In this document: positions 2,176 through 51,912 of the stretch, piece after piece
Layout of the letters: each line of letters opens with the position of its first letter
Position numbering within the stretch: position 1 is the stretch's first letter
Assembly: GCA_963675665.1 (NCBI GenBank)
Contig: OY776510.1
Span: forward strand, 3,872,001-3,936,000
DNA from: Spirochaetia bacterium
Lineage (GTDB): Bacteria; Spirochaetota; Spirochaetia; UBA9216
Direction of reading: 5' to 3'
Length of the DNA stretch: 64,000 bases
The notes under the pieces: generated by a model
What the model saw: only the letters and a program-made list of their open reading frames with translations
Told to the model about the DNA's origin: nothing
The model's database searches: none
Program-made: the position numbers and the translations under genes

Positions 2176-2484
2176 ATGGGATTCTGGGAAAGATCAAAAG
2201 AAATGCTTAACAAGGGCGTAATATCAACAAAAGAAGTTATTGAAACCGCCGGCGAAAAAAGCAAGGAGATTGGAGAAAAAGGAGTTGCAAAACTTACCAT
2301 TATGCAGCTTGAAAAACAGGCGGAAAACAGGTTTGCACAGATTGGCCGTCATGTTTATCAAATTCTTATAAAAGAGGGCCAGCAGACTATCTCCAGAGGA
2401 ACAGATGATATTAAGAAACTATTGTCTGAGGTTGAGAAAATAGAAAAAGATATAGACGAATACGAGAAAACACTGAAAAGCTGA
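2176..2484 (+). CDS. Hypothetical coiled-coil protein
   Basis: GAGGTG RBS; 102-aa helical charged protein. Confidence 0.75.
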   Translation: MGFWERSKEMLNKGVISTKEVIETAGEKSKEIGEKGVAKLTIMQLEKQAENRFAQIGRHVYQILIKEGQQTISRGTDDIKKLLSEVEKIEKDIDEYEKTLKS

Positions 2485-2489
2485 GATTG

Positions 2490-3554
2490 CTACAGCCAGC
2501 GTTTTCGCCTGAACAATCTCAGTAATATCAGTGATACAATCAGAAATATGCCCCACATAATAAAGTAACTGTATCTGAAATGGAGTTCCGGCACATAATC
2601 AAAATTGGTGCCGTAGATTCCGGCGATGAAAGTGAGCGGGATAAATATTGCAGAAAAGATGGTAAGTATCTTCATGATTTCGTTCAAGCGGTTGCTTACG
2701 CTTGTATTATAGATATTTAGATGATCAGAGAGCATTTCTCGGTAACTGTCGATTGCGTCTACTGTCTGATTTGAAAGATCCAGAAGATCTTTCAGAAAAG
2801 GTATTGTTTCTTCCTGAATCAGCTCCGAATCTATTCTGGAAAGCTGAAGCAGGAATTCTCTTACAGGCCTCAACTGTTTGCGAAGATAATTCATTTCCCT
2901 TTTGTAATTATTGATCCTGGCAAGAACTTCCTGCGTAGGATTCCTTAGTATCTGCTCCTCGATATCTTCTATCTGTTCTCCCAGCCTTTCAATAATAATA
3001 AAGTAGTTATCTATAATAGTATCAAGAAGCGCATATGCCAGATAATCAATTCCGACCTTGCGTATCCGTCCTTTATGTTTTCTGATCCTGTTGCGGACCG
3101 GCTCAAAAACATCACCCGGTCTTTCCTGAAATGTAAGGAGAAAAGTTTTACCGAGAATAATACTCAACTGTTCACTTTGGATCTCTTGCTTTTCCTCATC
3201 ATAGTGCATCATTTTAATACCGAAAAACAGGTAATCATCATAGTCTTCCATTTTGGGTCTTTGTCCGGTATTTACAATGTCCTCGGTCACCAGGGCGTGG
3301 AGGTCAAACCCGCTGCCTATTTGCCTGATCAGGTCGGTATCGTGAAGCCCATTAATATTGAGCCATGTAACAGTATTTGTTTCCTTATACGGAAGCCCTT
3401 CTTTTATTTCATGAAGTGTTTTCTCGCTCAGTTTCTCATGGTCATAATCAATTAATGATATCGTTGATTCCTCAACCTTCTGTTCTCCAATAAAAATAAG
3501 TTCACCCGGAGCCTGACCTATTGCTGCAACTTTATTTTTCAAAAATCTGGCCAT
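2490..3554 (-). CDS. corA: Magnesium/cobalt transporter CorA
   Basis: QRPKME motif and C-terminal PLTFIAGIYGTNF (GMN-like) with two TM helices. GGAGG RBS before the ATG at 3554. Confidence 0.95.
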   Translation of the reverse strand: MARFLKNKVAAIGQAPGELIFIGEQKVEESTISLIDYDHEKLSEKTLHEIKEGLPYKETNTVTWLNINGLHDTDLIRQIGSGFDLHALVTEDIVNTGQRPKMEDYDDYLFFGIKMMHYDEEKQEIQSEQLSIILGKTFLLTFQERPGDVFEPVRNRIRKHKGRIRKVGIDYLAYALLDTIIDNYFIIIERLGEQIEDIEEQILRNPTQEVLARINNYKREMNYLRKQLRPVREFLLQLSRIDSELIQEETIPFLKDLLDLSNQTVDAIDSYREMLSDHLNIYNTSVSNRLNEIMKILTIFSAIFIPLTFIAGIYGTNFDYVPELHFRYSYFIMWGIFLIVSLILLRLFRRKRWL

Positions 3555-3622
3555 GTTTCCTCCCATGGTTTAAGCGTTTTTCATTTTTTAATTTATTGTT
3601 TAAATATTATTCCAATCAGTGA

Positions 3623-4588
3623 TCAAAAAAGATTAAAACCGATTTTAATGCCGGCTTTTAACTGAAACCGGTTTTTCTCAAAAAATGTCGGATCCAAAAA
3701 GTCTTTGAACATTGGTGCTTCCCAGCTTTTATCTTGCCAAAAATCACTGTAGGTTTTTGTAAATCGGGCATCAAGCAGATCAAGCCCCTCACAGAATATA
3801 CTGACGGAAACAAGGTTAGCCTGGCCCAGGAGTTCTTCGGACATAACAGTATACCCACGAAAAACAACAAAATCTGCACCCAGTCCGGAAAACCAGATGC
3901 CGTCGCTGCCGGACTGAGCTACACCATCCTTAATCCAGCCGGTACTGCTGCTGACGATTGAAACATAATGATTTACAATGTAAGCCTTGATAACCGGCAT
4001 ATATTTAAAAGGCAGACGGAATATAATCCCGTAGTACCATGACCATGCACCAGCCATGGGATCGGTCATCATAGTGTTTATCAGCGAATCGCCGTATTCA
4101 AAAACATCAAGCTTTTTCTGATCGTCAGCGCTTAATGAGCCCCCTTCATAGATAATTGCTTCCAATTCGGCAAGAATCTCCTCGTATTCCGTACACCTCC
4201 GGTAATGTTCAGAAAGATTTTTCTGGAAAGAATCTTTGTAATCAGAACCCCAAACCGGAGAGATTCCGATAAACGGGGCAATAAGCAGTCCTTTATTCAT
4301 AAAAACAAAAGGATTAATACCGGTTTCTATATATAAACCGCTGCCTAAACCGGAATAACCACCAAGTATTTCCGTTTTGTTTCCGATATCAAAATAAAAT
4401 ATGCCGACATTATTGTCCGGGTATAAATGAGATATAAAATCATCATCCATATCCAGAAATGAATAACCCGGGAACCCGAAGACCAGAGCTGGCGTTACAG
4501 CAAAGATAAAAATCAATAATAAAAAAAACGGTTTTTTTATTGCTTTCTGTCTTATTTTATCAAAATCGAATGTGCTCATATTCTTCAA
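3623..4588 (-). CDS. Hypothetical exported or outer-membrane protein
   Basis: Signal-like N-terminus; amphipathic C-terminal strand ending in Phe (KAGIKIGFNLF). Confidence 0.65.
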   Translation of the reverse strand: MKNMSTFDFDKIRQKAIKKPFFLLLIFIFAVTPALVFGFPGYSFLDMDDDFISHLYPDNNVGIFYFDIGNKTEILGGYSGLGSGLYIETGINPFVFMNKGLLIAPFIGISPVWGSDYKDSFQKNLSEHYRRCTEYEEILAELEAIIYEGGSLSADDQKKLDVFEYGDSLINTMMTDPMAGAWSWYYGIIFRLPFKYMPVIKAYIVNHYVSIVSSSTGWIKDGVAQSGSDGIWFSGLGADFVVFRGYTVMSEELLGQANLVSVSIFCEGLDLLDARFTKTYSDFWQDKSWEAPMFKDFLDPTFFEKNRFQLKAGIKIGFNLF

Positions 4589-23950: not shown

Positions 23951-24200
23951 TTACATAATTCTATAAATGATTTATCAAAATCTCATTTATTGTTTCTTTT
24001 TTTCATTACTGTATTTTTTATATAATCAGCAACATAATCTTTATTTCCTGTTTTTATTGCTTTGAAAATCTCCATAATATTTACTGCTTATTAAATAGAT
24101 TTGTAAATAATGCAACAGGCAGAGTATTCATGTCGGCTTCTGTATTGATTTTCCTTAGACATTAATTGCAAGGATTATTCTATTCGTTTTTATCGTTTAA

Positions 24201-28506: not shown

Positions 28507-29994
28507 TTATTGAATAAGTAATCCCTGAGCAGAATAATGGTTTCCGTTTATGTCGACCACATTTACTTCAAGCATATCATCTGAAAACCTGTAAATATAT
28601 TTTGCGGCCCATCCAAGCGTGGGGATAACCGTATTCCAGATAATTGTATTATTATCAAAGAACGCCTTTGCAGCTATGAGTAAATTACGTTCATTTTTAT
28701 TTATATAATAATTTCCCATTAATCCCGGTTTCAGAATAGTCGGTATATTTTCACTATTATAAACGGTTAGAAATATCTCATTTTTTTGAGAATCAATTTC
28801 AAATTTTAATTTAACAGTATTAAAAACTCTTTGCTCATATTGAAATTCTTTGCCGCTGTAATATTTTAACCATTCAGGAAGCTGCTGAACAAATTCATCT
28901 GAATATTCCTCCCCTGAAGGGCTCTCGATTTGATTTTGTACAAAAACAAGTTCCTCCATGAGCTCTAATGATTCGCCTTGTTCAATTGAGGAGTCTGAAA
29001 ATTGACTGATTATTATATACTTCCCCCGTTTTATCAAATTAATTGTTTTTTCAATCACAAAAAAATCAGGTCGATGGTCCTCTATTAAAATAAAACCGTA
29101 TTTGGCTCCCGGAAAGATTGGATGAAAATGAAAAAGAACGATATCCTTGTTCTCCAAAGCCAGAGGACGGCCCGCCGTAAGGTTTTCATTGGTACTCTCC
29201 GAAAAATAAGGATGATCTTCAGCGGCATAAACGAGATCGGTATATCGAATGTCTGAGAAGTTCATTGCCTGTGTATAAGTAAGATCTAAAGGGTGCCAAA
29301 CACCTTCTTCATCCATAAATTCAACCCATTCATGATGAAAATCATACTGGTCCTGATGCTCCTGATTCAACACAACGCCGGATATTGAGCGAGCGGGAAT
29401 TCCATTTGCCCGGCACAATGCGATAAATAATCTTGAGAAATTAATACAGACCCCTTTCCGCTGGAATAGCGTCTGCGATGCTGATATAGAAGCGGGAGCC
29501 CGGTGGAACTTCTGATCAAACTTTAGATGACCGATGACAAAGTCGCTGATAGCTCTAACATTCTCTTCGACAGTTTTTGTGCCGTCAAATATTTGATGGG
29601 CTTGTTCACGTATGGCGGAATCTTCCGAATCGATGAAACGGGAAGGAGTAATCCAGGCTGCAGCCGTTTCATTACCATGGCGGTATGTCGATACGTTTTC
29701 CTTCTGGAGGGTGTAGCGTACAGTCATAATAGAGTACTTACTGAGCTCATTACAGGAGATCCGGGCCCAATATCCCCCGTACCCATCATATATTTTTTCA
29801 TATGGCACAATACGATCATTTAATAATATTTCAATCCCATTTGTTTCCAGAGATGAGCGACCGATTGGTATTAACAATGATGTTCCCAGCGGTAACATCT
29901 GTATTGATTTATTAGTCTGACTATAAACTCCCGGTATGAAACATATAATCAACAATGAAAAAAATACAACGTTTAAAAAGAATCTCCGTTTCAA
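28507..29994 (-). CDS. Exported transglutaminase-like protein
   Basis: GVCINFS..LCRANGIPAR, HEWVE, LDLT (Cys-His-Asp triad); signal peptide. Confidence 0.85.
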   Translation of the reverse strand: MKRRFFLNVVFFSLLIICFIPGVYSQTNKSIQMLPLGTSLLIPIGRSSLETNGIEILLNDRIVPYEKIYDGYGGYWARISCNELSKYSIMTVRYTLQKENVSTYRHGNETAAAWITPSRFIDSEDSAIREQAHQIFDGTKTVEENVRAISDFVIGHLKFDQKFHRAPASISASQTLFQRKGVCINFSRLFIALCRANGIPARSISGVVLNQEHQDQYDFHHEWVEFMDEEGVWHPLDLTYTQAMNFSDIRYTDLVYAAEDHPYFSESTNENLTAGRPLALENKDIVLFHFHPIFPGAKYGFILIEDHRPDFFVIEKTINLIKRGKYIIISQFSDSSIEQGESLELMEELVFVQNQIESPSGEEYSDEFVQQLPEWLKYYSGKEFQYEQRVFNTVKLKFEIDSQKNEIFLTVYNSENIPTILKPGLMGNYYINKNERNLLIAAKAFFDNNTIIWNTVIPTLGWAAKYIYRFSDDMLEVNVVDINGNHYSAQGLLIQ

Positions 29995-31327: not shown

Positions 31328-32878
31328 ATGATAACAATAACCCTTCTTGTTTTAATCATGTTTATATTTTCAGTTCCGGAAATTGGTGCTGATGACGGCA
31401 GCTGGAATACCTCATTCTCAGTACAGGGCGGAAGCATCTACAGTGAGACTGATCATCCGGAAATAATCCTTGAAAAGGAACTGCTTGTATTTGACGGGAA
31501 AAAGACTGCCGCAATCTTTCAGTTCAGAAATACTTCTGCCCGCACAATTACGGTAGACTGCGGATTCCCGGTCAGACATGAAATAGATACAATAGATTAC
31601 GGCGACTATCTGGAAGTTCTTTCAGGGGGCTACGGCGGCGGTGTAATAAAAGCGCTTGAGTGGCTTGAAACGGAAGATATCATCGATCCTGAAGGAATTG
31701 AACCTCCCGGTACAGCCATATTACTGAATGACTACAATAACACCCGCGAGTTTATCGGGCCCGAAGATATATCGGCAGAAATCGATTTTTCAATATCACA
31801 GGACGGTAATCAGGTAAAAATCCGGAACCTGCTTCTGGAACGTCATGCTTCAAGACTCGTTGCTGCGGTGACCTACCATTTCCGCCATAACCTGGTTTTT
31901 CCTCCCGGTGCAGTTTCGACAGTCCGGGTTGATTATACTCAGGATCTTGTTTCCGGCGGCGACAACATGAGCAATTCATACCGTTGGGATTATGTAATCG
32001 GGACCGGTTCGACATGGAAAGGCCCAATCGGATCATTTCTTCTGGCGGTCCCCGCAGATTGGGACGGTGAGACACCTGGTCTTGAAAAGCTTATCGGTAC
32101 AGACGGATTCAATGTATTCGGGGCCCGCGACTATGAACCGGCCCGCATCGAAACCTTCAGGTTTTATTCCTGGGATATGGATTACATGAGTCTCTATATC
32201 TTTCGTGAAGAAACTTTTCCCGCAATGAAAAAAATGTGGCAGACCGGTTCAAGAGAGGTCATGCAGGAAATCAGACCCGTACAGGAGTTTGTCCGGACTG
32301 TTTCCGCGTCATCATTTATCCGTGATCGTATCAATGTATATTGCGCGGACGGCGTGGTAGATCGCGCCGGATTCGATCCTGTCGCCGCTTTTGACGGTCT
32401 GGACGAAACCTCATGGTGCGAGGGGGCCCCGGACGACGGGATTGGCGAATACCTTGAGTGCGTATTGACTGAGCCTGTGTGGGCACTGACGATTAAAAAC
32501 GGTTTTACCCGATTCGCGGCTGAAAACTGGATGTTCGAATACGGAGATTTCGATGAATATATAAAAGACGACAGTCTCGGCCTTAAGGATTACTACAGAA
32601 TGAACAATCGCGTAAAAACCCTTGAGATATCATCTTCAGGCGGGGAACCCGTGTACACGCTCGAATTGGCCGACAGGCGGGATTCACAGACTTTCAGCGG
32701 TATTTTTCTGGAACCGGGCACATGGCGTTTCACAATTCGTTCCGTATATCCGGGGTCGAAGTGGAAAGATACATGTCTTGCGGAATTACGCTTTGTCGAA
32801 AAGCCCTCGGTAAAAACTTTCAAAACATACCTGGATGACACATTCTTTCGGAAACACCTTGCGGGTTTCAGATATTAA
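31328..32878 (+). CDS. Exported protein with DUF4424-like N-terminus and discoidin/NADase-type glycan-binding C-terminal domain
   Basis: Signal peptide; YVIGTGSTWKGPI; AFDG..ETSWCEG..DGIGE, NNRVK, VYPGSKWKDTCLAE. Confidence 0.7.
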   Translation: MITITLLVLIMFIFSVPEIGADDGSWNTSFSVQGGSIYSETDHPEIILEKELLVFDGKKTAAIFQFRNTSARTITVDCGFPVRHEIDTIDYGDYLEVLSGGYGGGVIKALEWLETEDIIDPEGIEPPGTAILLNDYNNTREFIGPEDISAEIDFSISQDGNQVKIRNLLLERHASRLVAAVTYHFRHNLVFPPGAVSTVRVDYTQDLVSGGDNMSNSYRWDYVIGTGSTWKGPIGSFLLAVPADWDGETPGLEKLIGTDGFNVFGARDYEPARIETFRFYSWDMDYMSLYIFREETFPAMKKMWQTGSREVMQEIRPVQEFVRTVSASSFIRDRINVYCADGVVDRAGFDPVAAFDGLDETSWCEGAPDDGIGEYLECVLTEPVWALTIKNGFTRFAAENWMFEYGDFDEYIKDDSLGLKDYYRMNNRVKTLEISSSGGEPVYTLELADRRDSQTFSGIFLEPGTWRFTIRSVYPGSKWKDTCLAELRFVEKPSVKTFKTYLDDTFFRKHLAGFRY

Positions 32879-33011
32879 AAGGACTCAGCATAAGGAAGCG
32901 CCGCAGCTTGCGAGGATGCTCATCTTCAACATCAATTATGTAATGTTCTTTTGCCCCGTCATATGGAAAACCACATTCTGTAAAAGAAAAGGGACTCCTG
33001 GCGCGCCAGTA

Positions 33012-33133
33012 CTGCAGAGGCGGAAGCTGATGTTGTTGTCGCGATTCGACGGATTGTTGTTGTTCCGGTTGGCACAACGCAGGTTATTACCTGAATTGTT
33101 CCAGTTACCGCCACGGTTCAAACGGTTACTGCC
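33012..33133 (-). repeat. DGR template repeat (TR)
   Basis: 122-nt AAC/AAT-rich near-copy of the VR. Ungapped alignment has 30 mismatches, 21 of them at TR adenines. Confidence 0.93.
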
Positions 33134-33176
33134 GTTTATCGACACCTTCCCATAATCGCTAAATTTTTTAGAAAGC

Positions 33177-33301
33177 CAGGGGGTTTACCCCCTGAACCCC
33201 CTTACAATGCCGTTCTTGCGCTCCCTTCGGGGCGCAAAGAACGGCCAGGACAAAATGTAAAAAGGTAAAAAATAAAAAGGTTACGCCGATTTTCAATCGG
33301 C
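33177..33301 (-). other. Three hairpins between VR and TR (DGR cis-element-like)
   Basis: GCCGATT-GAA-AATCGGC over the stop codon (33285-33301); GCCGTTCTT..CCC-GAA-GGG..AAGAACGGC (33209-33245); CAGGGGG-TAAA-CCCCCTG (33177-33194). Confidence 0.75.
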
Positions 33302-34498
33302 TGTCCTGCAGAGGCGGAAGCCGACGTAGTTGCCGCGAAGCGACGGATTGAAGACTTCCCGGGAGGCACAACACAAATATTCACTTGAATCTTCCCAGTT
33401 ACAGCCACGGCCCACACGGTAACCGCCACTTTCTGGTCCCGACGGATCTGTTTCAGACCCGCCGCTGTAGGCAGCATGCCAATCATAACACCATTCATAC
33501 ACATTGCCGCTCATATCCCGCAATCCCAAAGCATTGGCGGTTTTCAAGCCTGCTTCTTTGGTGCCAAAAGTCGGATCTCCACTGCTTCCACTATTGTTGC
33601 CGGAGTACCAGGCATAGTCGCTTATTTTATCAGGGTCTGTTTCATCGGTGTACACAGGACCGCCGCTTACATGATCTCCGCCGTTCCAGTTTGTACCGTC
33701 AATGTACCTTGCTGCGTACTCCCATTCTGCTTCGGTGGGCAATCGGTAACCGTTCTTGCTCCAGTCCACATACACAGCAGCACTGCTTGCAGCATCGGCC
33801 TTGGTATAGTCTGTGGTCAATCCGGCATCGGAATAATAAACCTGTTCAGTATCGGTTATGCTGTCATCCGCCTGGGTCAGGAGATTGCAGAACGCCGCCG
33901 CGTCATACCAATTCACGTAGTAGGCTGGATACTCAGCTCCCGCACCATATCCACTTCCGTCCGGGTCCGTCCCCGGCCAGGTGGTCAACCATACATCTTC
34001 CCATAAGCCCTGGGTAACCTCGGTTTCACCCATCCAGAAGTTTTTGGTTAACGTAACTTCCTGAGTTGTGCTTTCCACATCCTCGCCCATGGTAAAAGTG
34101 CCTCCGGAAGGCACATAGTGCATGTTGAAGTTGGCTGCATTGGCGGTGTGTAATATGGCAGCCCCTGCAATATATGAAAAGGTTGCCGTAACTTCCACTG
34201 CCGATGCGGGCATGGTAAAGGTTGCCGTGCCGCCGTCGCTGCTTATCGTTGCCGGGCTGATGCTGACCCCTGATGCACTTAACGCAACCTGCCGGCCGCT
34301 GTTAAGCGATGCTGTCAGGGTTACAGTGGCCCCCTCTGCTGCCTCGGATACATCGGCATTTAAAGATTCTCCTGATTCCGCTCCACTGGGGCTTACTGTT
34401 ACCGCGTAGGTTGTGGGTGTAGGATCATTCGGTGTGGGACATCCTGCTAAAAGCAGGATTCCTGCAATTGCAATCGCTGCTAGAATAATTTTTTTCAT
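33293..34498 (-). CDS. DGR target lipoprotein: bacterial repeat domain plus FGE-sulfatase/CLec domain with C-terminal VR (TvpA-like architecture)
   Basis: Lipobox LAGC; FTMG, ETEVTQ, YRLPTEAEWEYAAR, N.LGL.DMSGNVYEWC, GFRLC. Confidence 0.92.
   Translation of the reverse strand: MKKIILAAIAIAGILLLAGCPTPNDPTPTTYAVTVSPSGAESGESLNADVSEAAEGATVTLTASLNSGRQVALSASGVSISPATISSDGGTATFTMPASAVEVTATFSYIAGAAILHTANAANFNMHYVPSGGTFTMGEDVESTTQEVTLTKNFWMGETEVTQGLWEDVWLTTWPGTDPDGSGYGAGAEYPAYYVNWYDAAAFCNLLTQADDSITDTEQVYYSDAGLTTDYTKADAASSAAVYVDWSKNGYRLPTEAEWEYAARYIDGTNWNGGDHVSGGPVYTDETDPDKISDYAWYSGNNSGSSGDPTFGTKEAGLKTANALGLRDMSGNVYEWCYDWHAAYSGGSETDPSGPESGGYRVGRGCNWEDSSEYLCCASREVFNPSLRGNYVGFRLCRTAD
33306..33427 (-). 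repeat. DGR variable repeat (VR)
   Basis: 3' end of the target gene; shares the terminal GCTTCCGCCTCTGCAG with the TR. Confidence 0.93.
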
Positions 34499-34577
34499 CT
34501 CTTCCTCCAATTATTATTTCAATTGGCGGCCACGGATAGCCGCCTCTTTATGGACTGTTTTTAGGGCGTGGTATTTC

Positions 34578-34725
34578 CGCTAACGCGCCAGGAATATGCG
34601 AAGTTGAAGTGAAGCCAAAGGAGTGTTTTGCCAATGAGCAAAACCGACTGCCCCTGCTCTGCTTCTCAGCAAGCTTCAATTTGGGTGTAGGCCGTATGGC
34701 CGAGCCGCATATTTGCTTGTTAGAT
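34578..34725 (-). repeat. attC-like site 1
   Basis: Minus strand ATCTAAC...GTTAGCG; inner arms AATATGCG/CGCATATT; homologous to sites 2-4. Confidence 0.85.
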
Positions 34726-34881
34726 GCCGTTTCTTTCATGGTTGATTTATAGTGTTTTTGTCAAATACATGGATGTATTTGACACCATAATTAGTTTCAA
34801 AACTTTTGTCCTTAGTCAGAACTTAATGCTCCCTTTATCTCAGATATAAGCTCACCAATCTTTGTCTTTTCCTCTTCTGAT

Positions 34882-36089
34882 TGTTTAGTGAGAGTATTTC
34901 CCTGACACTCACCCCGAAAAATATATAATTTCATTATGCGGCAGTGCCGCCATTGTCCTCGTCTTTTTCTACTTCCTCAAGGAATACCTGAAAGGGTATT
35001 CTACCCTTCATATTGCGTCCTTGATGTGCTCGTTCATTATTGTAGTACTCCAGAAACTTATCCAGATCTTCCTGCATCTCAGATAATGATTCGTAATATT
35101 TTTCACGACCTTTAATTCTAAAATGCTCATCAAGTAAAGTTCTGTGAAGCCGCTCAACAAATCCATTACTTTGCGGTCTGCAGACCTTTGTTGTCCTATG
35201 CTCTATATCTTCAAGCTGAAGGAATAATTCGAAAGGATGATGGTCCGGTCTTCCGCAGTACTCACGTCCATTGTCGGTAAGCACATTCTTAACCTTCACA
35301 TTATGTTCCTCGAAAAAAGGCAGAACATCATTATTTATTACCTGAACTGCAGTCACCGGCAGCTTATTTGTATACAGCCTTCCCCAGGCATGACGACTAT
35401 GACAATCAATCACTGTTTGTAAATATATTTTCCCTATTCCTTTCAGATGTCCGACCATAAAGGTATCTATCGAAACGAGATAACCAGTATGCTTTGTTTC
35501 GATGTGTCTCTCTCTGAACTCAGGATTAAATCTTTCAAGTAGTTTTATCTGGTCATCATTAAGCTTGAATTTTTTGTTCTTCAATTTTTCTTCCAAGCGT
35601 AAAAGTCGCTGGTGGCGGGTTTCCATTTTATGTCTAACCCATACTCCACGGACCCCGCCGGAGCTTACATTCACACCCTTCAAAGCAAGCTGCTGAGAAA
35701 CTCTCAGACAACCATGAGTTGGGAACTCCAAACTATAATCCAGAATCTCTTTTTCAATTTCAGGTGCTACTCGATTTGGATGTGGATTCCGTGGTCCTGG
35801 TAAGCTGTCGATTAATCCCTGAGATCCGTAGGTTTGATAATTACGTCTTATCTCATAAAATTGCTGCCGGGAATAACCCATAATTCGACATGCCTTACTT
35901 ACATTTCCTAAATCTTCTGCAAGCTCTAACATACTCATCTTTCGTCTCGCAGCTTTCTGTGCTACAGTCTTGTTGGTGGCCATTTGCTCCTCCTGATAAA
36001 TGTTTTTGTGGTGAAATCATTATATCTTTCGGAGGTGTTTTGGCCACCTATTTTTTAGCCAACTGTCAGGTTAATACGATCACTGTTCA
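34882..36089 (-). mobile_element. IS481 family insertion sequence
   Basis: Imperfect 26-bp TIRs TGTTTAGTGAGAGTATTTCCCTGACA / TGAACAGTGATCGTATTAACCTGACA, flanked by the TTCTGAT direct repeat (34875-34881, 36090-36096). Confidence 0.92.
34934..35983 (-). CDS. IS481 family transposase
   Basis: N-terminal HTH LGNVSKAC; DDE integrase core (IDT, LTDNGREY, NGFVER). Confidence 0.95.
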   Translation of the reverse strand: MATNKTVAQKAARRKMSMLELAEDLGNVSKACRIMGYSRQQFYEIRRNYQTYGSQGLIDSLPGPRNPHPNRVAPEIEKEILDYSLEFPTHGCLRVSQQLALKGVNVSSGGVRGVWVRHKMETRHQRLLRLEEKLKNKKFKLNDDQIKLLERFNPEFRERHIETKHTGYLVSIDTFMVGHLKGIGKIYLQTVIDCHSRHAWGRLYTNKLPVTAVQVINNDVLPFFEEHNVKVKNVLTDNGREYCGRPDHHPFELFLQLEDIEHRTTKVCRPQSNGFVERLHRTLLDEHFRIKGREKYYESLSEMQEDLDKFLEYYNNERAHQGRNMKGRIPFQVFLEEVEKDEDNGGTAA

Positions 36090-36251
36090 TTCTGATAAAG
36101 AATCATCTAGAATTACTCTAACAGAATCAATATCTGAATATAATTGATCAATAAACTTTATATAATCAAAATCATTTTGTTCTTGACCTTCTATAATGCT
36201 AACACTTAATTCATCTTCATCAGGTTTCCTATAAAATTTAATTTCCATTAT

Positions 36252-38570
36252 TTACCCCCTGAAACTTTTAAGATTATATTTTTTTACTCTTTTTTTTATA
36301 GATGGTTTGCCACCGTCTGTAATTTCTGCAATATAATCAACTACACTTTTTGAGTTTATTTTACCTTCTAGAGCTTCTGAACGAATTATTATTTTTTCTG
36401 CACTTTCACACAAAATAATATTCTGAGCATCTCCTAACATTGGAATTGTAGCATTATGAGATACAAGTATAATTTGTTTTTTACTTTTAATATTTTTTAT
36501 TGCTTTTATTAATCCAACATTAATGTAATTTGTTGCTAAATTATCTTCTGGTTGATCAATAATTAATGGTGCAGTGTCACCTAAATATCCCAATATGAGA
36601 TCCAAAATAACTGATGTTTTCCATCCTGCACTTAATTCTTCAAAATTTTTACCTGAAGCGGTAGTGATACGATATTTTATCTTATTAAGTTTATCAAATT
36701 CATGATATATCTTTGATTTGAAATCATCATATGATTGTATTTTAGGATTTTGTTTTCGAAATTTATCAATATATAAATTTTCTGGACTGATTTCTTTAAA
36801 AGAATTAATTCGATTATTTGCTTTCAAATATATATTTAAGACTTCTAAAAACTTATCTTTCGTAAGTTGAAAATCATTTTCAATGAATAATTCATGATCC
36901 ATAACTTTTTCTTTTTCAGTTTTACATTTTATAGAGTATTTGGATATTTTTTCTAATGTATTATAAAAAATATCTAGTTGCCTTTTGTATTCAGATACTT
37001 TATTTATTAATCTTTCAAAATCCAATTTTTTACTTTGGTGTTTTTGATTTTCTAAACTTAGATTTCTATCAAATTCTTCTTTATAATCATTTATCTTTCC
37101 TCGAATGATATTCTCACTTATAGATATATTATATGCTTTTAAAAGCTTCTCTTCTAACTCATTAAAAATTGATTCGTCAATTTCAATAAATGGATTTTCC
37201 TCAATAAAACTTTTTATAGAAGTAAGATTATTCAAATGCTTTTGGTAAGTTAATTCTGGATATTCAATCTTTCTGATTGTATTGGAACTTGGAAGTAAAA
37301 GGGAAAAAACATTATGTTTGATTTTTTCAGTTAATACCAACCTAGAAATTACTGGAATTTGTTTAAAATCATGCTGTATGCTTTCAATATTCTCAATAGA
37401 ATCTATTAATGAATCTAGATCCTGTTTTAATCCTATTAAAGCGTCTCTTACCTTAGCAATAATCTCAGTATTCCCTGGAAAAACTTTTTTTATTATTGGG
37501 ATATCATCAATATCTTTTTTGCTATTTTCATGTATTAATTGAATTATATAATTTTGATCAATATAATGAGGAACTAAGCCTGACGGGTTCCTAATCTCTA
37601 TATCATTAACAGAAAATTTTTCATAAATTATATTTATTTCACTATTATTAAGCTTTCTAAACACTGAATCAACAAATAATGTCTTTCCACTAGAAGAACC
37701 ACCAATAACAACATTTAAGCCAGGAGAAAGCATAACATCTATATCAATAAATTCATTATTTAGCTTCACTTCACTTATAAATTCAGACCAGTGTTGGGGA
37801 GGTTCTTTAGAATATACCATTCTTGAGGATTCTGACAAAGCTAATCTTAAACCACTAAATGTTGGTTGTGAATAAATCCACGTAGGAATAAATTCACTTG
37901 CATTTGGATCCTTAGCGCTAGGATAATTACTTGGATTATAATTATCTGTACAAGTAACTAAATTTATGAACTCTCTAATACCAAGCCTATCAAAATATTC
38001 CAATGTATCTTGTAAGCCCCTTTCATTTCTTGCAGTAAATCCATCGAATTGATTGTAATAGATATTTCTTTCTAATATTGAATCATATCTGACACCAGTT
38101 TCAGTTGATATAGACTTATGAAATTGTTTATGATTTTGACCACCATGTGGTAGTAGTATAAAATCATAATTATCAAAGTTTCTAATTATTGTTTCAATAT
38201 TTAATTTAAAATCATCATCACCATCAATTATCTTATTTGGATACAAATTATCCAATATTTCATTTATATCATCTATTTCTGCTTCTGTAATATTATCTAT
38301 ATTGAAAAATATATGGCAATGATATAGAGGCTTGTTATCATAATTAAAAATGTGCAATTCTACACCTAAAACAACGTTTTTTGTTTTTTCTAATAATTTC
38401 ATATATGCAAGCTTATTTATCGTATTATGATCTGTTAAAGATATTAGAAAATCCGAATTTGCTGACACTTCAGATATTTTTGATAAAAGTAAATCTACAT
38501 TATATTCTTCATTAAGCTGATTAGGATTCTCTGAAGTGTGAATATGTAAATCTGTATAAATAGGTTTCAC
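36252..38570 (-). CDS. PHP phosphoesterase-ABC ATPase fusion (Ppl/TrlF-like candidate defence protein)
   Basis: DLHIHT, LTDHN, GVE, HCH; Walker A GGSSSGKT; LSAGWK; IIDQPEDNL; VSHN. Very AT-rich. Confidence 0.85.
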   Translation of the reverse strand: MKPIYTDLHIHTSENPNQLNEEYNVDLLLSKISEVSANSDFLISLTDHNTINKLAYMKLLEKTKNVVLGVELHIFNYDNKPLYHCHIFFNIDNITEAEIDDINEILDNLYPNKIIDGDDDFKLNIETIIRNFDNYDFILLPHGGQNHKQFHKSISTETGVRYDSILERNIYYNQFDGFTARNERGLQDTLEYFDRLGIREFINLVTCTDNYNPSNYPSAKDPNASEFIPTWIYSQPTFSGLRLALSESSRMVYSKEPPQHWSEFISEVKLNNEFIDIDVMLSPGLNVVIGGSSSGKTLFVDSVFRKLNNSEINIIYEKFSVNDIEIRNPSGLVPHYIDQNYIIQLIHENSKKDIDDIPIIKKVFPGNTEIIAKVRDALIGLKQDLDSLIDSIENIESIQHDFKQIPVISRLVLTEKIKHNVFSLLLPSSNTIRKIEYPELTYQKHLNNLTSIKSFIEENPFIEIDESIFNELEEKLLKAYNISISENIIRGKINDYKEEFDRNLSLENQKHQSKKLDFERLINKVSEYKRQLDIFYNTLEKISKYSIKCKTEKEKVMDHELFIENDFQLTKDKFLEVLNIYLKANNRINSFKEISPENLYIDKFRKQNPKIQSYDDFKSKIYHEFDKLNKIKYRITTASGKNFEELSAGWKTSVILDLILGYLGDTAPLIIDQPEDNLATNYINVGLIKAIKNIKSKKQIILVSHNATIPMLGDAQNIILCESAEKIIIRSEALEGKINSKSVVDYIAEITDGGKPSIKKRVKKYNLKSFRG

Positions 38571-38752
38571 ATAAGACTCCTTTATACTATATTTTTAATA
38601 ATCTAATTCAAGCCTCTTTCTTGCACGCCATGGACGGCGGGCTCTTACTTAAACACTCCCAACCATTAAAGAAATTGCCTATAACGTTCCGGGCATATGC
38701 GAAGTTGAAGCGCAGCCAAAGGAGTGTTTTGCCGTAAGCGGTAATTCTTCCC

Positions 38753-40285
38753 CTATGACTTTATCTGTTCAGCGGTCAGGTTGAATGGTAGCAGTTTTTC
38801 ATAATCTGCGGGTTCTTCACAGTACGGTAACTTGCGAAAAACATAGTAGAAGTAATCATAGACCGATAGCTTCTGCAATTTAGCAGATTCAACAAGACTG
38901 TAGAGTACCGCCGAAGATTCGGCTCCATGTTCGGTGTCGGAAAACAACCAGTTCTTCCGTCCGATTACAAACGGCCGGATTGCATTTTCAGCAATGTTGT
39001 TCGACGGAGTAAGCAGCGGATCTTCCAGGTATAACTTTAACTGAACCCAGTTATCAAGCGTGTATGATATCGCCTTCCCGAAAGCCATTGTAGGCGGAGT
39101 CCCTGCTGCATGTTTAGTAAGCTGTTTGAATAAAGAATCAAGGATAGATCCGGCCTGGTTGGCTCGATGCTTCTGAAAGCCTTTTTTGGAATATTGCTCG
39201 CGCAGGGCTTCAAGCTCGAACAGGTCTTTAATCAATTCAAGTATATGTTTTACTTCCGGAGATTTAGACATCTCCCAGTATTTATAAAAATACCTTCTGG
39301 CATGCGCCCAACATAAAACATGACGAGGTCCATCATGTCCATCTTTTCGCAGCCTTTTCAAAGCAGTGTGATAGGCCTCATAATCATCAGTCTGCAACCA
39401 ACCGGTATAACCTTGCAGAAAATCATACGGTATTTCATGAGAACGGCCTGTTTCATACTGAAACACTACCGATTTTTTATCAGGTTTTCCGCCAAGAAAG
39501 ACCCACATCCAGGATTTATCCTGTGCTTTGCGACCTTTTTCTTTCAAAACCTGTACCCGGGTTTCATCGGCATTTATTATCGGCCCGTTTTTAATATTAT
39601 CTTTAAGCAACTCATAAATCGGTCTGCATTTATCAGCGCACTTTATTGCCAATGTGCTCAGTGTTGCCCTTGGAATATCTGCACCAATTGTATTCAGTCT
39701 CTTGCTCTGACGGTAGAACGGGAGAGCATATTCAAACTTCTCATTTATGATCCACGCGAGAAGGCTTTCATCGGCAATGCTCCCGGCGATCAGATGTTTA
39801 ATCCCTTCAGCAGTCTGCACCCCCGAAGTTTCATCGGTGGTTCCTTCACAATTTCTGCAAACATATTTTTTCTTTATCTCACGCCTGACTACTACTTTCG
39901 CAGGAACTATGCATAGCCGTTCGGAGACATCTTCACCAATACAAATCTTCTCAGTTCCGCAAGCGCATGTTTTATCTTCCTCATCAATATCGTATTCAAT
40001 AATTTCTCGGGGAAGATCTTCTGACAGAGCTTTTCTACCGACACCCTTACGAACAGTTTTCGTGTGAGCTTTTACTTCACGGGTCTCAGTTTCTATTTCT
40101 TCGTTCTGCTCAAATGCCGTATCCTCTGCCTCGTTGAAAAGTGACGCCTGTTTTTTATCTTCATTCGTGAGCTTCTCTGATTTTGTTCCGAAATGAAGAG
40201 ATTGCAAAAGCTGGACCTGCTCTTCTAATCGGGCAATTTTTATTTTTAATTTCTCATTCTCTTCAAGCAAAGCCTGGCTGTTCAT
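38753..40285 (-). CDS. tnpC: IS66 transposase TnpC
   Basis: FG.KSEK, zinc finger, NADET, LQTDDY, CWAHARR, NN.AE.AIRP..IGRKNWLF. Confidence 0.96.
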   Translation of the reverse strand: MNSQALLEENEKLKIKIARLEEQVQLLQSLHFGTKSEKLTNEDKKQASLFNEAEDTAFEQNEEIETETREVKAHTKTVRKGVGRKALSEDLPREIIEYDIDEEDKTCACGTEKICIGEDVSERLCIVPAKVVVRREIKKKYVCRNCEGTTDETSGVQTAEGIKHLIAGSIADESLLAWIINEKFEYALPFYRQSKRLNTIGADIPRATLSTLAIKCADKCRPIYELLKDNIKNGPIINADETRVQVLKEKGRKAQDKSWMWVFLGGKPDKKSVVFQYETGRSHEIPYDFLQGYTGWLQTDDYEAYHTALKRLRKDGHDGPRHVLCWAHARRYFYKYWEMSKSPEVKHILELIKDLFELEALREQYSKKGFQKHRANQAGSILDSLFKQLTKHAAGTPPTMAFGKAISYTLDNWVQLKLYLEDPLLTPSNNIAENAIRPFVIGRKNWLFSDTEHGAESSAVLYSLVESAKLQKLSVYDYFYYVFRKLPYCEEPADYEKLLPFNLTAEQIKS

Positions 40286-40323
40286 AAATAAATTTTAACA
40301 TGATTAAATTCCGGTGTGAAGCA

Positions 40324-40668
40324 TTAAACGCGGGAATATGATAATTCTTTATGCGCGTTGAAGAAATCTATCCCGTCCAGCAGCATCTTAAGTTCCTCGA
40401 ATCTGATTTCTCTGGCCTCTTCTTCTGTTTCAGGCCAGGGAAACTTGTTCTTCTCCAACCGTTTCTGCCATAGGCAGAATCCGTTTCGATCCCAGTAGAC
40501 AATTTTCAAAAGTTTTTGTTGGCCGTTACAGAACAGAAACAAACTTTTCGAAAACGGGTCATTATGCATTACGTTCTGAATCTGAAGGCTCAATCCGTTT
40601 ACCCCTTTTCTTAAATCCGTTTTGCCGGGCCGTATAAAATATCGGTAATCTGTATAATCGAAAATCAT
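40324..40668 (-). CDS. tnpB: IS66 accessory protein TnpB
   Basis: TDLRKG.NGL, KIVYWD.NGF.LW.KRLE..KF.WP. Confidence 0.95.
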   Translation of the reverse strand: MIFDYTDYRYFIRPGKTDLRKGVNGLSLQIQNVMHNDPFSKSLFLFCNGQQKLLKIVYWDRNGFCLWQKRLEKNKFPWPETEEEAREIRFEELKMLLDGIDFFNAHKELSYSRV

Positions 40669-40961
40669 TCAAGTTCTCCGATTATTCTCAGAACTGATTT
40701 CAGCTCGGCTTCATCAAACCCGGCAGTTATTGATATTAAAAACTTTTTGGACTTCAATACAATTGGTGCAGCTGCTACAGATTGAACGGGTTTTATTTCT
40801 ATTATCTCTGAGCTCTTTGACAGGTTCATACCGAACCGTTTTCTGTGCTTATAGAAAGTATTTGGATGAATTTCAATCTCTTTGCAAAACTCCGGAATTG
40901 ATTTTCCGCTCATCTGTTGTTGTTCAAATATTTCTTCCCAGTTTTTGATTATCTTCTTCAT
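40665..40961 (-). CDS. tnpA: IS66 accessory protein TnpA
   Basis: W....QQMSGKSIPEFC..IEI..TFY HTH; GGAGG RBS before 40961. Confidence 0.88.
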   Translation of the reverse strand: MKKIIKNWEEIFEQQQMSGKSIPEFCKEIEIHPNTFYKHRKRFGMNLSKSSEIIEIKPVQSVAAAPIVLKSKKFLISITAGFDEAELKSVLRIIGELE

Positions 40962-41195
40962 TTCATTCCTCCGTGATTCTTTTCCCGGAGGATAGTACAT
41001 TTTCAGATTTTCGCAAGAAGGAAAGAATTACCGCTTACGTTTTGCCAAAGAGCAAAACCGACTGTCTTGTTCAACTTCTTCGCAAGCTTCAATTTGGACG
41101 AAGGGCGAATGCCCGTAGTCGCATATGCCCTGTTATAAGCTGTGTTTCCGCTCTTCGACCAGGCCGCACGGCGGAGTCAAGGTCTGGTCTCTTCA

Positions 41196-44303: not shown

Positions 44304-44383
44304 ATGCACTCCATATACATTCTTTATTCTTCATCGCCCGTCGGCCGGAGGTCCGGGCGTCTTCCTCTTAGCGGAAACATTGC

Positions 44384-44532
44384 TTATAACGTTCCCAGCA
44401 TAACCGAAGTTGAAGCGCTACCAAAGGAGTGTTTTGCCATAGAGCAAAACCGACTGACCATGCTCTGCTACTTTCGCAAGCTTCAATTTGGGTGGAGGCC
44501 GAATGGCCGGAACCGGTTATGGTGTGTTAGAT
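44384..44532 (-). repeat. attC-like site 3
   Basis: Minus strand ATCTAAC...GTTATAA; arms CATAACCG/CGGTTATG. Confidence 0.87.
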
Positions 44533-44659
44533 GCCGTTTCTGTCTTGGTTGGTTCTATGATGAATTTGTCAAATACAAGGATGTATTTGACAGAGCAATT
44601 GATTTCATAATTTTTTACTTTCTCCCCCTTTAAGGAATATGATACTAGGTCGTATCTCT

Positions 44660-46819
44660 TCAAGATGTTATAGCTTTTACATCATTATATAAAACACATA
44701 GGTGTTTATCTGACATGTCTATTATAGGTTCAAACATAAATGAATTAACATGGATATTCTCTGGAGTCATCAAATTAACTCTTTCTAATATCTTTGTATT
44801 CTCATTATCATCAACAAATTTTCTTTTAAATTCTTTAAATAGTTTACCAGTTTGGTTTTTTTTAATTCTACTAACAAAATCTCTATCATCTATTTTATTT
44901 ATCATAAAATCTTCAGCAAAAATGCGAATAGCCATGGATAAAACTATTTTTTTTTCTAAACAAAACCCAGATGAATCATCACTATTCACATATACTTCTG
45001 CAGTTTCACAAATAATATCTTGTATATTTTTATTATCATCTAAATCAAATTTGAATTCTATATCATTAAAAAATGATTCATAAATTTCTTTGATTTTACC
45101 AACAGTGATATTCTCACTATTTTCTTTTATATGTAATACTGAAGTTAAATCGCTAAAAATACTATTATTTCCAGTATATTCCGATAAATTCCTTGTAAAA
45201 GGTATTGATGCTATAAGCTTACTTGCATTGTCTAAATTCTTTTTCCAGAAAATAAACGGATTTGCAATATATGAATATTTTAATTTTTCAAGTTTGATAT
45301 TTCCTTCATCTCGCTCAGCAATATAAGAGCACATATATCGGTTCATTCCGATTCTGTCTTGTATCGTTCTAAAAAAATCATAATTATGCGTTAGAATAAT
45401 CATATAAAAATCATGATAATTACAAATATCTTTTAAGTATTCAATTATTGCGTATTTATTCTTATAATCAAATGAATCTGCAATATCATCTACAATAATT
45501 AAGTTTTCTGTACCTTTCTTTTTTCTTGATTCTATTTCAAAGATAATATTTAGCAGATATAGTGTTCTTCTTTCTCCTTGACTTAGTATTTTAATTAATA
45601 CGTCTTCATCAATTGGTTTATTTCCATGATAATTATATTTAATACTAGGGGCTACATCTTGAAGAACTGTTTCATCTTTATTCTCTATCTCTATATTATA
45701 GGGAACATAAAAGCGTCTATTAAATATATCTAATACTTTTTCCCAATCGGTTTTTTCTTCTTTTGCAGTTTCTACAACTTCTCTAATTTTTTCTTTATTC
45801 GTTCTGTATATATCAATTATTTCAGTATATTCAATTATCTTTTCAAAAATAAATGATAATACTACTTTTCTCTTAAATTCTTCAGGTTCACCTAATTCAG
45901 TAATTATTTCTTGATTTTCAAATAAGTATTCTCTAAGCGTTCTTAATTGTGCATTTGAAACTTTTTTATCAATTTTTTCAAATAGCTTTGAAATATCTTC
46001 ATCTTCTAATATTCTTTCTTTCTCTTCTTTAATAATCTCACTAAATGTCTCTTGATCGGAGATTTCTGTTTTATCACCATTATTATTTAAATTTATAGAA
46101 TGTTCTGCTTTAAAGAAACCATTGTCTGTTAATTGTTTATGGACTGTTGTTGCATTATAATGATTAAAATCTTTCTTCAAATATGTTGAATCTTGGATTA
46201 GCTGGTCATATCTATTTATATATTCACCTATTTCAGATTTAACAGATTTAATAAAATCAAAATTCTTTTGCTCGAATAAAATACCATAGTCGATAATGTC
46301 ATTATTGATTAAATTGTCTTTTTTGATTTCTGTTTCAAGTGTTAAAAGTAATTCTAAAAAATTATCATTATTAAACGTTTTCTCAATTTCATCAGTAATA
46401 TTTGCAGTTCTTTTTAATTTGAATAATGGTGTTATTGCTTCAATAAATTTTTCTTTCCCCTTATTGATATCCTCATATAATGCTTCATAAATTGATCTTA
46501 ATTCTTCATTAACAAGCAAGACTGTCATAGCATCTGATTTATAAGTTCTATCATAGGGATTAATTACAAAAACTTTATTAAAATCAATAATATTGTTTGA
46601 TTCATCTACAATAGTACGTAATGATTCCTTATCATTGTAAACTTCATCCTTACTATTATTACCTTTTGAAAAATCATCAAATGTTCTTGAAAAAGATGTT
46701 TTCATTACACCATTAGGAGCATATATAACATATACATTTTTATTATCGCTAAAATCAAATTCAAATTCTAAATCTTCAATTCCATAACAGTTCTTAAAAT
46801 CAATTTTTAATTTCTCCAC
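44660..46819 (-). CDS. ABC/SMC-like coiled-coil ATPase (AAA_13/RloC-like architecture; candidate defence protein)
   Basis: APNGVMKTS, long coiled coil, LSQGERR, IIVDDIADSFDYKNK, LTHN. Confidence 0.8.
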   Translation of the reverse strand: MEKLKIDFKNCYGIEDLEFEFDFSDNKNVYVIYAPNGVMKTSFSRTFDDFSKGNNSKDEVYNDKESLRTIVDESNNIIDFNKVFVINPYDRTYKSDAMTVLLVNEELRSIYEALYEDINKGKEKFIEAITPLFKLKRTANITDEIEKTFNNDNFLELLLTLETEIKKDNLINNDIIDYGILFEQKNFDFIKSVKSEIGEYINRYDQLIQDSTYLKKDFNHYNATTVHKQLTDNGFFKAEHSINLNNNGDKTEISDQETFSEIIKEEKERILEDEDISKLFEKIDKKVSNAQLRTLREYLFENQEIITELGEPEEFKRKVVLSFIFEKIIEYTEIIDIYRTNKEKIREVVETAKEEKTDWEKVLDIFNRRFYVPYNIEIENKDETVLQDVAPSIKYNYHGNKPIDEDVLIKILSQGERRTLYLLNIIFEIESRKKKGTENLIIVDDIADSFDYKNKYAIIEYLKDICNYHDFYMIILTHNYDFFRTIQDRIGMNRYMCSYIAERDEGNIKLEKLKYSYIANPFIFWKKNLDNASKLIASIPFTRNLSEYTGNNSIFSDLTSVLHIKENSENITVGKIKEIYESFFNDIEFKFDLDDNKNIQDIICETAEVYVNSDDSSGFCLEKKIVLSMAIRIFAEDFMINKIDDRDFVSRIKKNQTGKLFKEFKRKFVDDNENTKILERVNLMTPENIHVNSFMFEPIIDMSDKHLCVLYNDVKAITS

Positions 46820-46958
46820 AGTTTCCTTCTCTTATAATTATTTTTCCTTAATATTTAAAAATCAGCAGATTTACCAATAATATTATTCAATCCTTCTTCA
46901 TACCCGCCACGGACGGCGGGCTCTTCCTTAAACAATCCCAACCAAGACAGAAATTGCC

Positions 46959-47105
46959 ATCTAACGGCCCGGGTTAAGCGAAGCTGATGCGCAACTTAAG
47001 GAGTGTTTTGCGAATGCGCAAAACCGACTGGCCCTGCTCTACTTCTTCGTCAGCTTCAGTTTGGGTGGAGGCCGAATGGCCGGAACCGCTTAACCATTGT
47101 TAGAT
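46959..47105 (-). repeat. attC-like site 4
   Basis: Minus strand ATCTAAC...GTTAGAT; arms GGTTAAGCG/CGCTTAACC. Confidence 0.87.
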
Positions 47106-47336
47106 GCCGTTTCTTGGTTGGTTGAAGAATAAATTGGCAAAATACACGGATGTATTTTGCAACACAACCAATTTATTAATATTTCACTTCTCTTTCTCTA
47201 TCCAGAATCATGAATATAGATTTTGACTACTCCAAAACCTTTGTTAAATGTCTGTTTTACCTGACCGCACGGCGGAGCCAAGGTCTGGCTCTAATTTTAA
47301 AAATATATTTCTTATTGCTTTTTACAACACATAATA

Positions 47337-47680: not shown

Positions 47681-47684
47681 AAAG

Positions 47685-47862: not shown

Positions 47863-47885
47863 CTCAAGCAATACTTAAAATTTTC

Positions 47886-49717: not shown

Positions 49718-49749
49718 GAAGACTGAATTTTCTATATAGATCTTCGGAT

Positions 49750-51640: not shown

Positions 51641-51891
51641 TTAACCTCATTTTCTTATTACATATTTGAAATCATACATATATTTCATATTTATTAATTT
51701 TATCAACTATTTCACGAAGTCTGAATCACCCCTAAATGACCCACATATTTGTTACATTCCTTAAAGATGAATTTATAATTCCGTATAACATATTATGCTT
51801 AGTGTTTTACTTAAATACTATTAAATTCTTCTCCTGCCAGCCATGGATGGCAGGCTCTTCCTTAAAAAATCCCAACCAAGAAAGAAATTGC

Positions 51892-51912
51892 ATCTAACTC
51901 AGTTTTATACGC
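51892..51912 (-). other. attI-like site at the head of the array
   Basis: Minus strand GCGTATAAAACTGA-GTTAGATG followed by the conserved cassette leader, with no attC body upstream. Resembles attI1 TAAAACAAAGTT. Confidence 0.55.

Follow-up and report, generated by a model that had tools for sequence, protein, structure and literature searches.

A truncated diversity-generating retroelement at the distal edge of an attC array in a Spirochaetia bacterium, probably the remnant of an integron-type cassette

Introduction

Integrons and diversity-generating retroelements (DGRs) are among the main bacterial generators of adaptive variation: integrons shuffle ready-made genes, whereas DGRs rewrite one gene at a defined site. 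To our knowledge, the movement between genomes of cellular DGRs that are not phage-borne is poorly understood. Here we describe a remnant of a DGR that lies beside the last attC site of an array of integron-type cassettes. The window analysed is a stretch of 64,000 nucleotides from a Spirochaetia bacterium (GenBank assembly GCA_963675665.1, contig OY776510.1, positions 3,872,001 to 3,936,000 of the forward strand), and the element occupies positions 32981-34583 of its minus strand. Genomes are denoted by handles, G000 being the genome of the window (5.15 Mb, single contig); coordinates refer to the window unless a genome or contig is named.

The closest described DGRs are of the Treponema denticola type, whose targets are TvpA-like FGE-sulfatase/CLec lipoproteins, with HRDC and Avd as accessory genes. 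The likeness lies in a lipoprotein target with a C-terminal FGE-sulfatase/CLec variable region (VR), an AAC-rich template repeat (TR) and adenine-specific substitutions; an intact relative of the window element, in genome G263, also has HRDC, bAvd and a reverse transcriptase (RT) of ~310 aa. The differences are that RT, Avd, HRDC and the greater part of the spacer are missing from the window copy, and that the unit is bounded by integron recombination sites. Group IIC-attC introns are retroelements that home into integron attC sites as parasites. They too are RT elements physically tied to attC, but the retroelement described here appears as cassette cargo that uses attC as its own 3' end, and its RT is of the DGR type (with bAvd and TR) rather than an intron maturase.

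The array itself resembles integron cassettes and clusters of attC sites lacking integrases (CALINs), including the chromosomal integrons of Treponema as presented in the available portions of two papers (PMC3607928, PMC4889954). Shared traits are the R''/L''/L'/R' boxes, the AAC...GTT pattern, a covarying L stem, co-oriented open reading frames (ORFs), an IntI in the genome, defence cargo and insertion sequences (IS) in or near attC. The cargo differs, as a retroelement of five parts and ~3.4 kb takes the place of the single promoterless ORF that cassettes usually carry, and the window array lies 0.6 Mb from IntI, with no attC recognised by our covariance model (R1, see below) within 20 kb of that gene. 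The G263 unit, which has a 3' attC but only a GTTATAG half-site at its 5' end, also recalls the insertion of cassettes at secondary sites, as outlined in the accessible part of a preprint (bioRxiv 10.1101/2022.09.11.507474); such a route may apply to G263, where one locus points to it. Full-text searches, whose coverage excludes subscription journals, turned up no account of an attC-bounded DGR apart from a 2012 speculation. In the portions available, one study uses attC only as a tag for T. denticola (PMC4891356), and another treats DGRs and attC separately (PMC5737381).

Results and Discussion

A DGR target beside the last attC site

We put at roughly 0.8 the probability that positions 32981-34583 (minus strand) are the 5' part of a DGR that once entered the array as a single integron-type cassette. 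The target gene (33293..34498, minus strand) is an intact ORF of 401 aa. Its product reads as a lipoprotein with an LLLAGC lipobox, and domain profiles (Pfam and also NCBIfam) identify one InlB-B-repeat-like domain (PF18998/Flg_new_2, 3.4e-5) and a C-terminal FGE-sulfatase/CLec domain (PF03781, 1e-37) spanning residues 131-397 of the 401. A profile-predicted CLec/FGE-sulfatase fold is combined with a VR at the C-terminus, as in DGR targets: the VR (33298..33427, minus strand, 130 nt) forms the last ~43 codons of the gene and recurs 294 nt downstream, at 75% identity, as a TR rich in AAC/AAT codons (33004..33133, minus strand, 130 nt). The two repeats differ at 33 of 130 nt, and 21 of these 33 mismatches fall at TR adenines. 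Expressed per site, 21 of the 37 TR adenines are mismatched versus 12 of the 93 other positions (Fisher p = 8e-7). Further, VR and TR are identical over a 16-nt GC-rich 3' end (GCTTCCGCCTCTGCAG), as at a boundary resembling the initiation of mutagenic homing (IMH) site. The pair is a genuine, adenine-biased DGR pair. Nine of the 12 non-adenine mismatches lie away from the 3' boundary, and the 12 together indicate decay of the pair. The 165-nt gap between VR and TR contains no ORF; two GC-rich hairpins past the stop codon (GCCGTTCTTGCGC...GCGCAAGAACGGC and CAGGGGG..CCCCCTG; 33175..33260, minus strand), recognised by reading the sequence, look like terminators or post-VR structures. In G000 the TR is single-copy and no second VR is present. 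A 26-nt exact word from the TR had no match in metagenome contigs or viral contigs.

As proposed in the sequence-only reading, the ATG lies 80 nt downstream of the R' box (GTTAGCG, 34584-34578) of the last attC site and the gene is co-oriented with the cassettes, all array ORFs being on the minus strand. The interval between box and gene (34499..34583, minus strand) comprises the cassette 5' end and a leader (TTAGCGGAAAT...) with the hairpin GGCGGC-TATCCGTG-GCCGCC at 34525-34544 and a GGAGG about 7 nt before the ATG. Alignment of four loci (window, G020, G263 and G452) gave 60-75% identity from the R' box to the ATG versus 31-49% in the 60 nt upstream, the homology beginning at GTTA, that is, at the G|TT of the R' core where a cassette 5' boundary is placed. 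The DNA upstream of this point is a long attC in the window, a short decayed attC of ~108 nt in G020 and non-attC DNA in G263 and G452.

An intact relative closed by attC

The sequence-only reading had suggested a search for an intact target-TR-RT-attC version, with the predicted inner box CCGCTAAC, and one is present in contig C70 of G263, a genome from a third family. The unit opens with a GTTATAG half-site and a leader that has the hairpin of the window leader, with GGCGGCCATCCGTGGCCGCC, followed by the FGE-sulfatase target (965..2011), the post-VR spacer, the TR (2076-2203), HRDC (2295..2831), bAvd (2764..3159), the RT of ~310 aa (3147..4079), a TCCGTG-loop hairpin and an attC site (4206-4320; 49 bits; E 2.4e-8 for the locus, 2.7e-6 for the whole genome). 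The L boxes of this attC match perfectly over 12 bp, and folding of the bottom strand gives an R stem, a bulge and an L stem. The inner (R'') box of the site is CCGCTAAC, the exact complement of the window cassette start GTTAGCGG. All but one of the 21 mismatches between the G263 VR and TR are at TR adenines. The window and G263 are 78% identical over the first 70 nt post-VR and 75% identical over the TR. The intact unit suggests that an entire DGR can move as an integron cassette.

A DNA search with the VR-spacer-TR segment matched 12 of 401 class genomes, and partial copies fill in the picture. In G020, which belongs to another family, locus L113 has an attC-like site (7596-7703; 26 bits, E 8e-4 in 20 kb) of the short type with a decayed L'' box, then the R' box and leader as in the window, then a lipoprotein gene whose N-terminus is 78% identical to that of the window and whose last residues and stop context are the same, the FGE domain being only 38% identical. 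A 50-nt TR piece (9 of 13 mismatches at adenines) and a convergent gene follow; no RT was found in the G020 genome. G452 keeps the leader and target and is cut ~20 nt past the stop codon. By this comparison G020 and G452 are probably further decay stages of the unit. IntI scored above the family cut-off in each of G263, G020 and G162. The leader was detected in three of the 401 class genomes sampled (G000, G020, G263), G452 having come from an order-level search of 92 genomes. One low-depth contig from a run of another study carries a ~90% relative of the leader; the match ends at 34585 and gives way to the core of a different attC type, which may be taken as a weak hint of the same boundary.

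Separately, locus L274 in G162 (contig C193, 66-575) holds another relic, with an FGE-sulfatase fragment, a diversified VR-like repeat that has a TR-type 3' flank and spacer, and then unrelated genes. The 3' flank and spacer of the G162 relic are 85% identical to window 33027-32976.

Truncation of the window copy

From the TR to the end of a convergent gene there are only 125 nt. This gene (31328..32878), which encodes a NADase-type glycan-binding domain, runs opposite to the target. The homology of the window to G263 and G162 runs through the TR and ~25 nt of spacer and ends near 32981, and the TR-proximal spacer stub (TACTGGCGCGCCAGGAG...; 32981..33003, minus strand; delimited by alignment and BLAST) is fused to the 3' fragment of a small gene unrelated to DGRs (32868..32979, minus strand). 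A full-length 109-aa paralogue of this small gene lies at G000 positions 3751351-3751680 (84% identity over 58 nt). Because the homology stops ~25 nt past the TR and a small-gene fragment follows, the remainder of the spacer was lost, together with HRDC, Avd, RT and attC, in a deletion or rearrangement at this point, which joined the stub to the fragment.

No Avd, HRDC or RT adjoins the window TR, past which there is no ORF. G000 has no DGR-type RT either, the G263 DGR RT query being without a match at E <= 1e-30; its only PF00078 proteins are six identical RTs of ~470 aa, far from the window, which, as several identical copies of that length, we regard as probable group II intron RTs. Rfam gave no match at E <= 1 over window 30000-55000. 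Lacking a 3' attC and any RT, whether in cis or in trans, the window copy would now be neither diversifiable nor excisable. Judged on its sequence, it is an inert remnant of a DGR, truncated and placed at the distal edge of a CALIN: the TR would be inert and the VR frozen and drifting, and the lipoprotein would be expressed at most as a fixed protein. Thus, the proposal of a DGR sitting as a cassette in an integron-like array gains support from G263 and from the four-genome boundary, yet the copy that prompted it is truncated and has neither RT nor 3' attC. The stronger proposal, that two diversification machines are coupled in this genome, found no support: G000 has no DGR RT, the copy ends without an attC, and 0.6 Mb separates the array from IntI.

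Alternative explanations

Several observations weigh against a cassette origin. The model R1, run with filters off, found no match below 34569 at E <= 10 that could be the 3' attC of the window copy, and no attC with a CCGCTAAC box occurs anywhere in G000. The cassette status of the window copy therefore rests on comparison and not on local sequence; taken by itself, the window fits both a last cassette that has lost its 3' end and a first non-cassette gene, and cannot distinguish between them. In the arrays of G000, about half of the junctions compared by eye show a cassette 5' end complementary to the R'' box of the same cassette, and the G263 cassette start (GTTATAGG) differs from the complement of its own R'' at 2 of 8 positions. 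On its upstream side G263 has an R' half-site only, with no attC, in an assembly of 170 contigs where a misjoin is possible. In their central part, the target proteins of the window and of G263 or G020 share only 31-38% identity, so that the family is a mosaic one. Distant homologues of the target in G005, G010, G054 and G145 have no attC or TR nearby. The case for DGR cassette mobility thus comes from one intact copy, G263 being the sole attC-bounded DGR among the 28 DGR RT loci scanned with R1.

One alternative is that a resident, decaying DGR target locus came to lie by chance beside the distal end of the attC array and was never a cassette. Any gene beside the last attC would appear to be attC-preceded, the window offers no 3' attC, the GC content of the target region is 0.50 versus 0.26-0.38 in the neighbouring cassettes, and homologous FGE-sulfatase lipoproteins are present in 38 of 61 class genomes, most of them without attC, TR or RT. 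A chance neighbour is, however, hard to reconcile with one leader meeting three different upstream contexts exactly at the R' box, or with an intact relative that ends in an attC whose R'' complements the window 5' end. Nor is there a mark of a resident locus in the flanks, which are not conserved in the 10 family relatives searched: the convergent gene at 31328..32878 has one homologue among them (46% identity) and the gene at 28507..29994 has none, and both genes are absent from the five same-genus relatives searched. With the window flanks not conserved in relatives, a same-position comparison is impossible. The case that the sequence-only reading had named as refuting, homologues at the same chromosomal position without attC or leader, was approached only by the distant homologues just listed, none of which is syntenic. 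We consider chance adjacency improbable.

A somewhat smaller likelihood goes to the movement of the 5' module only, in which the attC-proximal leader and the part encoding the signal peptide and B repeat would be exchanged between paralogous lipoprotein genes through homologous recombination, and the DGR part would be an independent passenger in each genome. The mosaic make-up of the family would suit such exchange, as the contrast between the N-terminus (78%) and FGE domain (38%) of window and G020 illustrates, and G145 and G199 have the signal-peptide and leader parts only, without attC. But the window and G263 or G162 are also homologous (75-85%) at the end of the VR, in the post-VR spacer, in the TR and in the stub past it. 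Both ends of the unit are thus shared, and attC closes the G263 unit. Finally, the window copy might still be a working DGR target with the RT supplied in trans, a scenario that the intact target ORF and the identical 16-nt VR/TR end, as expected for an IMH-like boundary, would favour. It is very improbable, given that G000 offers only the six identical ~470-aa RTs and no match to the G263 RT at the threshold used, that the post-TR spacer is cut off, and that 12 of the 33 VR/TR mismatches are non-adenine, most of them distant from the 3' boundary. The contigs of public runs that contain the window strain show a single VR sequence and no alternative VR, although rare variants are invisible in contigs.

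Predicted life of a DGR cassette

The complete unit, in the form kept by G263, is ~3.45 kb long and consists of a TTRRRY start, a leader with hairpin and ribosome-binding site (RBS), a lipoprotein target with a C-terminal CLec/FGE-sulfatase VR, the TR, HRDC, Avd, RT, a TCCGTG-loop hairpin and attC. In the proposed mechanism, IntI would recombine the folded attC bottom strand with one of three partners (attI, a further attC or a secondary GTT site), moving the whole hypermutation system; an excised G263 circle would carry the junction ...CGCGGAACG|TTATAGGAAAT. After insertion, RT and Avd would copy the TR RNA with errors at adenines, and the copy would overwrite the VR, varying the ligand-binding face of a surface lipoprotein. 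We also favour, with less confidence than the reading of the window copy itself, the wider proposal that in Spirochaetia complete DGRs (target, TR, HRDC, Avd, RT) are true integron cassettes able to move, in which case the relics in G000, G020 and G452 would be what decay has left of repeated captures in at least four families.

If this is true, a whole system for targeted hypermutation can be captured by IntI, stockpiled, reordered and passed on horizontally next to cassettes for phage defence. An attC-bounded DGR would be a concrete vehicle for DGR movement between genomes, would show that cassettes can hold a multi-gene retroelement, beyond a single promoterless ORF, and would add a variable surface lipoprotein to the "biobank" that also stores anti-phage systems. 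The window would represent the decay end of this story, in which distal cassettes erode and erosion froze a once-variable protein.

Occurrence among related genomes

With the G263 RT as the query, DGR RTs were found in 24 of the 401 class genomes at E <= 1e-30. We scanned 28 of the 29 DGR RT loci, with 1.5-kb flanks, for attC (the dropped locus overlaps another), and R1 detected a site at one of the 28, that of G263. This count is a lower bound, because attC sites of other families could escape R1, which was built for the present one. The attC sites of G328, G364 and G419, although 83-88% identical to the G263 attC, were rejected as DGR ends: no ORF >= 160 aa lies upstream of them, and they close other cassettes.

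TR-like DNA of 71% identity was present in G115, G240 and G286, which belong to one genus with genomes of ~2.8 Mb. A homologue of the target in G056 (71% identity) lies on a 2.8-kb contig without TR or RT, its upstream side cut off. A search of genome contigs for related loci returned only distant FGE-sulfatase proteins (<= 40% identity). Self-BLAST of 80 related loci and 13 others revealed A-biased repeat pairs in four loci, those of L042 being tandem repeats.

The attC array

The attC sites that precede the relic belong to a well-defined family. We aligned 11 sites, which have invariant TAAC...GTTA boxes, a covarying L stem and a variable centre of ~95-150 nt, and from them built the covariance model R1, with a 14-pair structure, which was scanned with filters off. 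In this structure 90.9% of cells are paired and 20 cells are changed on both sides, a result reached by 0 of 500 shuffles; slid controls pair at 22-46%. At E < 1, the only R1 matches in the window are four sites, each of them on the minus strand; genome-wide, its 16 matches in G000 are confined to two clusters. The attC sites of the window array are real. They are the distal attC-a (34569..34732; 156.6 bits, E 1.5e-30; R'' ATCTAAC and the R' box given above), attC-b (38670-38736 and 41023-41145), attC-c (44375..44539; 163.3 bits) and attC-d (46950..47112; 153.7 bits), and they coincide with window repeats of about 150-240 nt at 34.6, 38.6/41.1, 44.4 and 47.0 kb that resemble the sites of the second G000 cluster (3.5127-3.5300 Mb). 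Long-type sites (~148 nt) are flanked by extra conserved hairpins. An IS66 element with three ORFs (38734..41038, minus strand) splits attC-b and is bordered by an 8-bp target duplication (GGCAAAAC). Just upstream of attC-a lies an IS transposase of the rve/DDE type (34934..35983, minus strand; Pfam rve, rve_3). In all, the array has two IS elements and three complete cassettes, which are of the defence type. The cassette ORFs, all on the minus strand, encode a TrlF/Ppl-like AAA ATPase that is a candidate defence gene (36252..38570; NCBIfam NF045780 at 182.6 bits, under the cut-off; PADLOC Ppl at 3e-21, C-terminal part only), a DS8/PDC-S60 anti-phage protein (41196..44309; NCBIfam NF053861 at 882.5 bits, cut-off 790; PADLOC PDC-S60 at 404.6 bits) and PDC-S46, a candidate defence protein (44660..46819; PADLOC, 815.9 bits, full-length match). 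At 51810..51892 (minus strand) an R'-type half-site (GAGTTAGATGCAATTTC) precedes a conserved cassette leader; R1 gave only 13 bits, and the half-site is the probable proximal edge of the array.

The window contains no tyrosine recombinase. The IntI of G000 is at 4525299-4526318 (L010 1129-2148; TIGR02249, 392.5 bits, cut-off 265, one full-length stretch), and R1 found no attC in the ±20 kb around this gene, in the region after 3.53 Mb or in that at 4.43-4.45 Mb. The window array is thus a CALIN, with four attC sites at 34569-47112, no nearby IntI and the IntI gene 0.6 Mb away. The larger cluster of the genome (11 sites, G000 3512682-3529958) directly follows a XerA-like recombinase (3510961-3512025; L009 961-2025), and the true IntI stands alone at 4.525 Mb. 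This recombinase was rejected as an integron integrase: it scored under the TIGR02249 cut-off, matched in two stretches and is without the IntI insertion. Either a rearrangement split IntI from its array or a non-IntI recombinase associates with attC sites.

Leader hairpins and other observations

The hairpin in front of the target had been proposed, through its CACGGAT word, as a mark of cassette 5' ends. The hairpin is real, and similar TCCRTG-loop hairpins stand at other cassette 5' ends (46903 and 51833), but the word is not enriched (8 matches versus 5.55 expected, with 23 of 100 shuffles reaching 8). Such hairpins number 108 genome-wide in G000, many of them before ordinary genes, so the leader hairpin is a lineage-wide motif of 5' untranslated regions rather than a cassette mark. 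Of 25 GC-rich short-stem examples picked by eye, most have the RBS and ATG of an ordinary gene ~10-30 nt downstream, and they are often the last of a three-hairpin leader. A 17-nt pattern of the leader-hairpin type matched in 7 of 401 class genomes, four times by chance in coding DNA, and reversed-pattern controls matched at a similar rate. In metagenome contigs, the 17-nt leader-hairpin word gave at least 120 GC-rich chance matches, none of them homologous to target or leader by blastn or tblastn, and was dropped as a probe.

Upstream of many ordinary G000 genes is a three-part leader composed of a long AT-rich TCCRTG-loop hairpin, a GAAGTTTG...CAAACTTC hairpin and a short CCYGCC-NTCCRT-GGCRGG hairpin (examples at G000 2400713-2400806, 1988060-1988165, 4258374-4258462 and 98253-98311). 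The short hairpin lies ~10 nt before AGGAGG and ATG. In these leaders the stems covary and the loops are fixed. Among the full leaders, one of five matched Rfam TD-2 (RF03162; 51.7 bits versus a gathering score of 48.7), on the opposite strand. Leader-type hairpins occur in the window at 34525-34544, 34759-34784, 46903-46920, 47137-47160 and 51833-51854, and hairpins of this kind also flank the long attC sites.

At the proximal side of the array, window 47113-51892 holds four genes (a methyltransferase, a LuxR-type regulator, GDPD and a transpeptidase/beta-lactamase-like protein), with no internal attC and a half-site at 51873. The R'' box of attC-d complements the half-site near 51873 (GTTAGATGC), so this stretch may be one multi-gene cassette of 4.9 kb. 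In addition, a 55-nt leader-like repeat (GACCAGGCCGCACGGCGGAGTCAAGG...) occurs at 41145-41199 and 47246-47300, two cassette-flanking positions, and, beyond the attC array, at 23905-23959 in the region upstream of a BtrH_N/DUF4872 gene. The low-GC stretch at 20-26 kb may represent older, attC-less cassette DNA.

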